Source of the DNA: Escherichia phage KK4
Sequence record: OR327750.1
Reading direction: 5' to 3' (one strand)
DNA: 64,000 bases
A model generated the notes under the pieces. That model was not told the DNA's origin, did not search any database, and saw only the letters and a list, made by a program, of their open reading frames with translations. Every line of letters starts with the position of its first letter. Within the stretch, counting starts at the first letter, position 1. Below, in pieces: positions 26,158 to 27,178 of this stretch. The position numbers and the translations under genes are program-made.

Positions 26158-26233
26158 TGGTCGAGGCAGTAGGGATCGAACCTACGACCTAGGACTTAGA
26201 AGGTCCTTGCTCTTCCTTCTGAGCTATGCCCCG
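26158..26233 (-). tRNA. tRNA-Arg (anticodon UCU)
   Basis: Manual cloverleaf: 7-bp acceptor, T-loop TTCGATC, anticodon loop CTTCTAA, encoded CCA. Confidence 0.8.
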
Positions 26234-26237
26234 TAAT

Positions 26238-26313
26238 TGGGGTGACCGATGGGAGTCGAACCCATGACTACGAGAATCACAATCTCGAGTTCTACCAACT
26301 GAACTACGGCCAC
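26238..26313 (-). tRNA. tRNA-His (anticodon GUG)
   Basis: Manual cloverleaf: anticodon loop TTGTGAT, discriminator C73, encoded CCA; position -1 is not G. Confidence 0.7.
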
Positions 26314-26426
26314 ATTAATACCTACTCCAACAATCAAGATGTCTTCACACGAAATTAAGAGAAGAGTGATCAGTTCAACCCTATAATCGCGTCAAGTAGA
26401 TATTAATGTGACAGTTGTCACAAATT

Positions 26427-26501
26427 TGGCGGACGTGATAGGATTCGAACCTATAACCAATCGCTTAACAGGCGATCGCTCTGCCATTGAGCTACACATC
26501 C
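26427..26501 (-). tRNA. tRNA-Asn (anticodon GUU)
   Basis: Manual cloverleaf: anticodon loop CTGTTAA, T-loop TTCGAAT, encoded CCA. Confidence 0.75.
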
Positions 26502-26505
26502 AAAT

Positions 26506-26592
26506 TGGTGGGGAGTGATGGAGTCGAACCACCCGAGTCGCAATGACAATGGATTTACAGTCCACACCGCTACCTCTACGGGATAACTCCCC
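26506..26592 (-). tRNA. tRNA-Tyr (anticodon GUA), type II with long variable arm
   Basis: Manual cloverleaf: anticodon loop CTGTAAA, 87 nt, encoded CCA. Confidence 0.7.
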
Positions 26593-26605
26593 TTAATTCT
26601 TAATT

Positions 26606-26680
26606 TGGTGGCCCTGGGTGGAATTGAACCACCATCTGGCGATTATGAGTCGCTTGCTTGAACCTTCCAGCTACAGGGCC
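26606..26680 (-). tRNA. tRNA with CAU anticodon (Met, or Ile2-type AUA reader)
   Basis: Manual cloverleaf: anticodon loop CTCATAA, T-loop TTCAATT, encoded CCA. Confidence 0.7.
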
Positions 26681-26681
26681 T

Positions 26682-26757
26682 TGGTGCTGATTGACGGAAT
26701 CGAACCGCCGACCTTCTCATTACAAGTGAGTTGCTCTACCTACTAAGCTAAATCAGC
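26682..26757 (-). tRNA. tRNA-Thr (anticodon UGU)
   Basis: Manual cloverleaf: anticodon loop CTTGTAA, perfect 7-bp acceptor, encoded CCA. Confidence 0.8.
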
Positions 26758-26762
26758 AAAAC

Positions 26763-26852
26763 TGGCGGAGGCGATAGGATTTGAACCTATGAGTCGCCGG
26801 AGCGACTGCCGGTTTTCAAGACCGGTGCATTAAACCACTCTGCCACGCCTCC
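26763..26852 (-). tRNA. tRNA-Ser (anticodon UGA), type II
   Basis: Manual cloverleaf: anticodon loop CTTGAAA, long variable arm, encoded CCA. Confidence 0.8.
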
Positions 26853-26854
26853 AG

Positions 26855-26928
26855 TCTCCATACAAGGATTTGAACCTTGGACCTCCTGATCCCAAATCAG
26901 GCGCTCTACCAAACTGAGCTACACGGAG
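26855..26928 (-). tRNA. tRNA-Pro (anticodon UGG), CCA not encoded
   Basis: Manual cloverleaf: anticodon loop TTTGGGA; 3-prime end abuts tRNA-Ser by 2 nt (dimeric precursor arrangement as in T4). Confidence 0.8.
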
Positions 26929-26938
26929 TAAATTAAAT

Positions 26939-27012
26939 TGGAGCGGATAATGAGAATCGAACTCACATCATCAGATTGGAAGTCTGAGGTAATGCCATTA
27001 TACGATATCCGC
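26939..27012 (-). tRNA. tRNA-Gly (anticodon UCC)
   Basis: Manual cloverleaf: anticodon loop CTTCCAA, encoded CCA. Confidence 0.8.
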
Positions 27013-27017
27013 AAATT

Positions 27018-27104
27018 TGGTGCGAGAAGTGGGACTCGAACCCACAAGGAAATCATTCCGCAGCATTTTAAGTGCTGTGCCTTTACCAATTTGACCATTC
27101 TCGC
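27018..27104 (-). tRNA. tRNA-Leu (anticodon UAA), type II
   Basis: Manual cloverleaf: anticodon loop CTTAAAA, long variable arm, encoded CCA. Confidence 0.8.
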
Positions 27105-27105
27105 G

Positions 27106-27178
27106 CTGGGAATAAAGGACTCGAACCTTTGCATCCTGGAATCAAAATCCAGTGCCTTACCAACTTGGCTAATTCCCA
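27106..27178 (-). tRNA. tRNA-Gln (anticodon UUG), CCA not encoded
   Basis: Manual cloverleaf: anticodon loop TTTTGAT; abuts tRNA-Leu (Gln-Leu dimeric arrangement as in T4). Confidence 0.8.

Follow-up and report, generated by a model that had tools for sequence, protein, structure and literature searches.

The 64,000-nucleotide stretch of Escherichia phage KK4 analyzed here (sequence record OR327750.1), hereafter the window, contains exactly 11 tRNA genes, all on the minus strand between positions 26158 and 27178. We put at roughly 85% the probability that they belong to the T-even coliphage tRNA/stable-RNA operon, in a mosaic allele free of the endonuclease gene segB, and that they supplement the tRNA pool of the host. 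According to ARAGORN, the genes are transcribed in the order Gln(ttg), Leu(taa), Gly(tcc), Pro(tgg), Ser(tga), Thr(tgt), cat, Tyr(gta), Asn(gtt), His(gtg), and Arg(tct), which is also the order returned by Rfam and the one that a first-pass annotation, made from the letters of the DNA, had proposed together with the anticodons. Ten of the genes score 59 to 74 bits against Rfam RF00005 (E values of 1e-11 to 1e-15; gathering score, 29 bits), and tRNA-Tyr, which has a long variable arm, reaches 34 bits under the clan sister model; every one of the 11 called by ARAGORN has a defined anticodon and either a covariance-model match or a cloverleaf. Between Asn and His, the array is broken by a conserved interval of 113 nucleotides (nt) at 26314-26426, referred to below as the leader of tRNA-His.

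This 11-tRNA array is already known and annotated: it is a T-even (Tequatrovirus) tRNA array of the T2 type, free of segB. The 2-kb region is 100% identical to that of Escherichia phage GADU22 (Tequatrovirus, OQ944321), in whose record all 11 tRNAs are annotated, and 95 to 99% identical to that of hundreds of other T4-family phages. A probe spanning Tyr-Asn-His-Arg was covered to at least 80% in 186 phage records, phage AR1 being 100% identical, and a count of 11 tRNAs in Tequatroviruses appears in several published genome papers. The array is therefore routine and annotated across a large group of T4-family coliphages; descriptions of its main parts date from 2008 to 2011. An anchor scan of IMG/VR yielded 13 oddly truncated loci, and the GenBank phage collection was far more informative.

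The evidence for a T-even operon comes first from T4 itself (NC_000866, 70.9 to 72.5 kb), where the order is Gln-Leu-Gly-Pro-Ser-Thr-Ile, segB, and Arg-rnaD-rnaC. The array occupies the same slot on the same strand and has the same flanks, with trna.2-4 and ipI upstream and rnaD, rnaC, and a terminator downstream. Positions 27297 to 26661, which reach about 20 nt into the CAU/Ile gene, are 96.2% identical to T4; positions 26660 to 25790 form a cassette unrelated to T4; and positions 25789 to 25449, which hold rnaD, rnaC, and the terminator, are 91% identical to it. The genes from Gln to Thr are orthologous to those of T4, with 89 to 100% identity per gene: tRNA-Gln (UUG; 27105..27178; 65/73 identical positions), tRNA-Leu (UAA; 27018..27104; 87/87), tRNA-Gly (UCC; 26939..27012; 73/74), tRNA-Pro (UGG; 26854..26928; 74/74), tRNA-Ser (UGA; 26763..26852), and tRNA-Thr (UGU; 26682..26757; 72/76).

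CCA is encoded by 9 of the 11 genes, as read directly from their ends. The exceptions are tRNA-Gln, which ends in its discriminator G and one C with G1 of tRNA-Leu immediately next, and tRNA-Pro, which ends in A-C-T and abuts tRNA-Ser; the first-pass annotation had described both ends correctly. The same CCA-less Gln-Leu and Pro-Ser junctions occur in T4, and we read both as predicted dimeric precursor arrangements. The CCA of tRNA-Ser is followed by a G, and this CCAG ending has also been reported for T2L (PMC2330249). As a separate observation, the anticodon stem of tRNA-Gln has been wholly exchanged relative to T4 through compensatory changes, the remainder of the gene being identical, and its anticodon loop reads UUUUGAU here versus CUUUGAC in T4.

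The array departs from T4 in several respects. The window has Tyr, Asn, the leader, and His in addition to the T4 set of Gln, Leu, Gly, Pro, Ser, Thr, Ile, and Arg; its CAU/Ile (47/72) and Arg (49/70) genes are of other sequence types; its Ser and CAU tRNAs encode CCA, unlike those of T4; and an open reading frame (ORF) of 116 amino acids sits between Arg and rnaD. T4 carries segB, whereas this cluster does not: a tblastn search with T4 SegB found no match in 25000-28000, while the controls, namely T6, phage a48, and a related locus (L006), matched at 83 to 96% identity, and the ORF list contains no ORF between the tRNAs of the cluster, in agreement with the earlier statement that no segB-like gene interrupts it.

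The distal half is instead that of T2 (AP018813), where Ser is followed by a 402-nt ORF, Met(CAU), Tyr, Asn, Arg, and a 351-nt ORF. The window shares with T2 and T2L the succession of a CAU tRNA (26606..26680), tRNA-Tyr (GUA; 26506..26592), tRNA-Asn (GUU; 26427..26501; 75/75 identical to T2), tRNA-Arg (UCU; 26158..26233; T2/T6 type), and the ORF (102/116 amino acids identical), and likewise has no segB. Its tRNA-Asn carries the T2-type sequence of the 27-bp site preferred by SegB (GGTTCGAATCC ... CCAA). A segB-free tRNA region in T2L, whose gene for tRNA-Asn carries this preferred site, was described in 2008, together with the exclusion of the T2L tRNA region by SegB homing (PMC2330249). T2 differs in lacking Thr, in whose place the 402-nt ORF stands, and in lacking a 189-nt module made up of the leader and tRNA-His; its Asn-Arg spacing is 4 nt. 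This module, between Asn and Arg, is the one departure of the window from the T2 type. Judging from these alignments, the allele combines a T4-like proximal half (Gln to Thr), a T2-type distal half, and a 189-nt leader/tRNA-His insertion after Asn. The earlier description of the cluster as expanded relative to the eight tRNAs of T4 holds as a count but not as history, as the distal half is a T2-type allele and the T4 cassette is one of several alternatives.

Several such alternatives occupy this locus, where T4 has 8 tRNAs, L006 has 8 plus a SegB homolog, T6 has 7, a48 has 9, a further locus (L009) has Tyr-Asn-Arg, and the window has 11. Among other relatives, the arrangement is CAU-SegB homolog-Arg or Tyr-Asn-Arg. 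T6 (AP018814), with ...Thr, Met(CAU), Tyr, segB, and Arg, and a48 represent a Tyr-segB-Arg type. T6 occupies the same locus and its tRNA-Tyr is 85/87 identical to that of the window, the two differences both falling in stem positions, and the Arg gene of the T6-type allele in a48 is 75/76 identical; on the other hand, segB follows Tyr in T6, and Pro, Ser, Asn, and His are missing there. The Klebsiella and Enterobacter T4-like phages of Karamvirus and Jiaodavirus carry the same leader-His module (leader, 81 to 87% identical; His, 97 to 99%), but within arrays of 12 to 15 tRNAs of other isotypes (Lys, Glu, Asp, Trp, Phe, and others) and with Gln upstream and Ser downstream of the module.

We propose that cassette exchange fixes the tRNA set of each phage and that homing endonucleases, which would cut in tRNA T-arms, drive this exchange, and the array may serve as a worked example of T-even tRNA content as a mosaic arising around homing-endonuclease sites. 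The SegB core GGTTCRANTCC is found in 9 of the 11 tRNA genes, and the His module starts 3 nt after the CCAA of tRNA-Asn, SegB being reported to cut preferentially just after a CCAR sequence (PMC2330249); it is a reasonable inference that the module was acquired by break repair at such a site. Taken further, the same observations, along with at least five alleles at one locus, sharp homology breakpoints, and a region called nonessential in the literature, could mean that the composition of the array is largely a by-product of selfish DNA (T-arm-cutting endonucleases and recombination between T-arm repeats), with the His module as a low-benefit hitchhiker. We consider this distinctly unlikely as the overall explanation. 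The cloverleaf of tRNA-His is perfect across genera by virtue of compensatory changes in the anticodon and T stems, the leader helix covaries too, and the module stays intact while its neighbors change, a pattern that indicates purifying selection on function.

The identity of the CAU tRNA, which the first-pass annotation had left as Met or Ile2, can be narrowed. The anticodon is CAU, as stated there, but Met is disfavored: the best matches among 5,345 Escherichia coli genomes are genes annotated by PGAP as tRNA-Ile (81.6% identity over the full length), the E. coli example being a prophage ileZ-type gene beside two tRNA-Arg genes. The phage gene has the same anticodon arm as this match (GCGACTCATAATCGCC) and shares with it the C4-G69 and C5-G68 pairs within a GGCCC...GGGCC acceptor. 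An anticodon arm of the ileX kind and the acceptor-stem pairs C4-G69/C5-G68 are determinants of TilS. The CAU tRNA is thus best regarded as an Ile2-type, AUA-reading tRNA, predicted to be lysidine modified and similar in role to the tRNA-Ile of T4, from which it differs in sequence type.

The unit runs further than the span of 26158-27178 given by the first-pass annotation: it continues past Arg, through the 116-amino-acid ORF and the rnaD and rnaC homologs, to a terminator, all on the same strand and located, as in the T-even operon, between trna.2 and e.8. The ORF (phrog_3355; 25789..26139, minus strand) is preceded by a GAGG ribosome-binding site and lies between tRNA-Arg and the homolog of rnaD (species 2 RNA; 25677..25791; 95/120 identical to T4), which has kept both T4 ends while its central ~45 nt have been replaced. 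The rnaC (species 1 RNA) homolog at 25532..25670 is identical to T4 rnaC at 138 of 139 positions. Downstream, a strong intrinsic terminator at 25481-25458, with a 10-bp stem (seven GC pairs) and a T-run, is homologous to the T4 sequence following rnaC and is predicted to end the tRNA/stable-RNA unit. At the other end, a putative MotA-type middle promoter lies just upstream of tRNA-Gln at 27248..27272 (minus strand), in a region 96% identical to T4, with a TGCTTTA box (27272-27266), a 12-nt spacer, and TATTAT (27253-27248). A weak sigma-70-like site at 27313-27285 has 9 of 12 matches, no better than expected from shuffled sequences.

By analogy with T4, one polycistronic precursor would extend from the tRNAs across the ORF, rnaD, and rnaC as far as the terminator, and host enzymes would process it: RNase P would form the 5' ends, RNase E and 3' exonucleases would trim, and the CCA-adding enzyme would complete Gln and Pro. 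The mature tRNAs would then supplement the host pool on behalf of an AT-rich phage. We compared codon usage in 86 window ORFs (19,268 codons) with that in 34 annotated E. coli coding sequences (CDSs; 11,956 codons). The codons cognate to the eight T4-type tRNAs have phage/host ratios of 10.4 (AGA), 4.9 (AUA), 3.9 (UCA), 3.5 (GGA), 3.5 (ACA), 2.9 (UUA), 1.95 (CCA), and 1.7 (CAA), and these tRNAs would read the codons most overused relative to E. coli. Asn (1.46-fold; AAU, 2.5-fold) and Tyr (1.42-fold; UAU, 2.0-fold) are the second and third most enriched amino acids, so that tRNA-Asn and tRNA-Tyr would serve two of the three most enriched. In addition, relatives whose tRNAs number only two or three still keep CAU and Arg(UCU) as a core pair. 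Because the cognate codons or amino acids are enriched and the CAU-Arg pair is retained, codon and amino acid supplementation accounts for 10 of the 11 tRNAs, all but His.

For tRNA-Tyr, a second role is documented in the sister phage T6, where an anti-defense function has now been demonstrated. Septu cleaves host tRNA-Tyr during T6 infection (PMC13096335; see also PMC11555353); overexpression of the T6 tRNA-Tyr, which has been detected by Northern blotting, rescues the phage, removing the T6 tRNA region by deletion increases its sensitivity, and T4, having no tRNA-Tyr, is unable to escape (PMC13096335). By analogy, the near-identical tRNA-Tyr of the window would buffer against host defenses that destroy tRNA-Tyr. 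The SegB-dependent amplification of Tyr through which T6 is reported to escape Septu is, unlike in T6, not available in cis to the segB-free allele of the window. This tRNA-Tyr is also ~96% identical in unrelated Vequintavirus-type phages and ~84% identical in T5-like phages, a distribution that suggests horizontal spread among coliphages.

One may then ask whether the extra tRNAs (Tyr, Asn, and His) are mainly anti-defense spares that replace host tRNAs destroyed by tRNA-cleaving immunity systems or toxins, an explanation which we deem somewhat unlikely. The three are among the four tRNAs with GUN anticodons (the queuosine family), all four of which occur in Karamvirus and Jiaodavirus arrays, and colicin E5 cleaves exactly the Tyr, His, Asn, and Asp tRNAs. 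His is beyond the reach of codon demand, and the occurrence of the same tRNA-Tyr at 84 to 96% identity in unrelated groups fits this explanation too, as do the action of the T6 tRNA-Tyr against Septu and that of a T5-family tRNA-Tyr against Retron-Eco7 (PMC13096335, PMC11555353). However, demand already explains Asn and Tyr well, the literature cited here describes no phage defense system that targets tRNA-Asn or tRNA-His, neither phage nor E. coli tRNA-Asn gave rescue from PrrC in one test (PMC11555353), and the T6 tRNA-Tyr is itself cleaved by Septu. Divergence of the anticodon loop as a means of nuclease evasion was likewise rejected for His, whose loop is identical to that of the host and shows no sign of a nuclease-resistant variant.

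Supplementation of the host pool by a T-even operon therefore remains our preferred reading, against which several points have to be weighed. The precursor and its processing steps rest on classical work on T4 and are carried over to this phage. The MotA-type promoter is a putative assignment by consensus match, read against the T4 middle-promoter consensus, and the 34 host genes of the codon comparison come from one chromosomal region. In T6, a single copy of tRNA-Tyr is insufficient against Septu and amplification is needed, and the phage tRNA-Tyr is cleaved as well (PMC13096335). Finally, no amino acid is as depleted in the phage sample as His (0.66-fold; CAU, 0.92-fold; CAC, 0.33-fold), which places tRNA-His outside the demand model, and this tRNA has T at position -1 (26314), where E. 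coli hisR has G, the chief determinant for E. coli HisRS.

The last two points make tRNA-His (GUG; 26238..26313, minus strand; CCA encoded), which codon demand leaves unexplained, the part of the array that retains a modest interest, together with the helix in its leader. G-1 and C73 are the major His identity elements in bacteria, G-1 being normally encoded by the gene (PMC9976931). The phage tRNA-His retains the C73 discriminator and the GUG anticodon, and T at -1 is found in all sampled tRNA-His homologs from six genera of Straboviridae and also in the tRNA-His of mycobacteriophage Dandelion, the one mycobacteriophage checked, so that phages in general may lack G-1. Nothing specific on phage tRNA-His without G-1 was found in a search of the literature. 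Both the missing G-1 and the leader had been overlooked by the first-pass annotation.

The leader (26314..26426, minus strand) has a fold z score of -2.95. In the direction of transcription it consists of a small hairpin (26421-26408) followed by a closing helix, P1, whose 5' arm (26407-26394) pairs with a 3' arm (26327-26314) that ends at position -1 of tRNA-His; P1 encloses a conserved core of ~65 nt and a hairpin of 4 bp with a 7-nt loop. It is present in 355 phage records, in one copy each, and is almost never annotated. In an alignment of eight sequences representing three genera, all pairs of the 14-bp helix are intact and six of them vary, and its covariation value of 0.251 compares with 0.149 in shuffles (0 of 500 reach the observed value) and with at most 0.143 in slid controls. 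A covariance model of the leader matches the sense strand only (108 to 121 bits versus 17 to 22 bits), once per genome and always abutting His, and finds no match in T4 or in the T6-type allele of a48.

Across six genera, the helix (13 to 15 bp) and T-1 are kept while the interior varies. When 14 helix positions are compared over these genera, two cells are mismatched and seven positions change yet stay paired. An interior of ~65 nt is found in four genera, its sequence being conserved among the Tequatrovirus, Karamvirus, and most Jiaodavirus versions; Winklervirus has another sequence of similar length, Gualtarvirus has about 33 nt, and Kanagawavirus has a 4-nt loop. The neighbors of the module vary by genus, the upstream one being Asn, Gln, or Ser and the downstream one Arg, Ser, Trp, or Glu; therefore, the leader is linked to His itself. 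No paralogs of the leader were found in other gaps of large arrays, nor in T4 or T6.

Several identities for the leader were considered and set aside. No Rfam 15 match at E <= 1 exists within 26314-26426, which rules out a known RNA family or ribozyme at that threshold. A degenerate tRNA is ruled out, neither ARAGORN nor the tRNA model detecting one, and so is a piece borrowed from a bacterial tRNA operon, given that 185,579 species genomes of bacteria and archaea contain no match to the core. The -35-like TTGACG that might suggest a sigma-70 promoter is TCAACG in Jiaodavirus and is not followed by a good -10. A DNA cruciform does not fit, since several helix pairs take the G-U form in the sense strand alone and the covariance-model score of the opposite strand is ~100 bits lower; a structure acting at the RNA level is favored. 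In the minimum-free-energy fold of the precursor, GUCAC (26408-26412), immediately upstream of the helix, can pair with G1-C5 of tRNA-His (26309-26313), sequestering the acceptor strand in Tequatrovirus and Karamvirus, but this extension into the acceptor strand is not conserved in four other genera and was rejected as a core feature.

The leader helix could direct processing, control timing, or frame a stable small RNA of the kind of rnaC and rnaD. We tentatively suggest, as a possibility to which we give somewhat less than even odds, that the leader and tRNA-His form a distinct, previously undescribed unit of Straboviridae, in which the helix would set a nonstandard 5' maturation or its timing, or release a stable RNA of ~95 nt, and in which the G-1-less tRNA-His might have a role beyond ordinary decoding. 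A more radical version, in which the phage tRNA-His would not be a normal translational tRNA at all but would be poorly charged without G-1, act with the leader as a regulator or decoy, or follow a leader that is a separate stable RNA, seems to us unlikely. It draws on T-1 in all sampled Straboviridae and a mycobacteriophage as opposed to G-1 in E. coli hisR, on the weight of G-1 and C73 in bacterial His identity, on the depletion of His codons, on the conserved and His-specific leader helix, and on the precedent of rnaC and rnaD, stable RNAs of unknown function in the same operon. Conversely, conservation extends to C73, GUG, and the full cloverleaf, as expected of a chargeable tRNA, some HisRS enzymes accept tRNA-His without G-1 (PMC9976931), high expression could compensate, and the shrinking of the interior to a loop of 4 nt in Kanagawavirus speaks against an independent small RNA under conservation. 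The specialist interest of the module lies in a conserved, unannotated helix tied to a tRNA-His without the G-1 on which E. coli HisRS normally depends. Should this tRNA be functional, it would be informative about the way in which infected cells establish His identity; should it be uncharged, a phage tRNA gene would be kept for a purpose other than decoding.

Among the remaining features of the locus, the phrog_3355 ORF is a conserved neighbor of tRNA arrays: it follows the last tRNA in Tequatrovirus, T2 included, and stands at the distal end of the Karamvirus array, and its coordinates in two relative loci are 2686-3060 (L016) and 5003-5353 (L038). It has no Pfam match and no significant PDB sequence match, its PHROG is listed as "unknown," and its family comprises just 8 clusters among 1.8 billion representatives. 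An AlphaFold model of mediocre confidence (pLDDT 66.5) gave no Foldseek match in the PDB at E <= 0.001. In the GADU22 record, the rnaD and rnaC homologs are unannotated and are overlain by a CDS for a hypothetical protein (WIL00149; window 25588-25716, minus strand), which is almost certainly a false call.

Relative to T4, the interval from the rnaC terminator to e.8 contains an insertion of two paralogous phrog_2280 ORFs of unknown function (24243-25582, minus strand), and this insertion is flanked by a repeated block of 33 to 36 nt from the terminator region (25449-25484 and 24894-24926). Elsewhere in the window, just after a gp5-like ORF of 576 amino acids, an ORF of 288 amino acids (34337-35203, plus strand) has no Pfam match but shows weak similarity to T4 SegB (25% identity; E value of 1e-4) and may encode a GIY-YIG homing endonuclease of the seg type; an equally long ORF stands at this place in T6.

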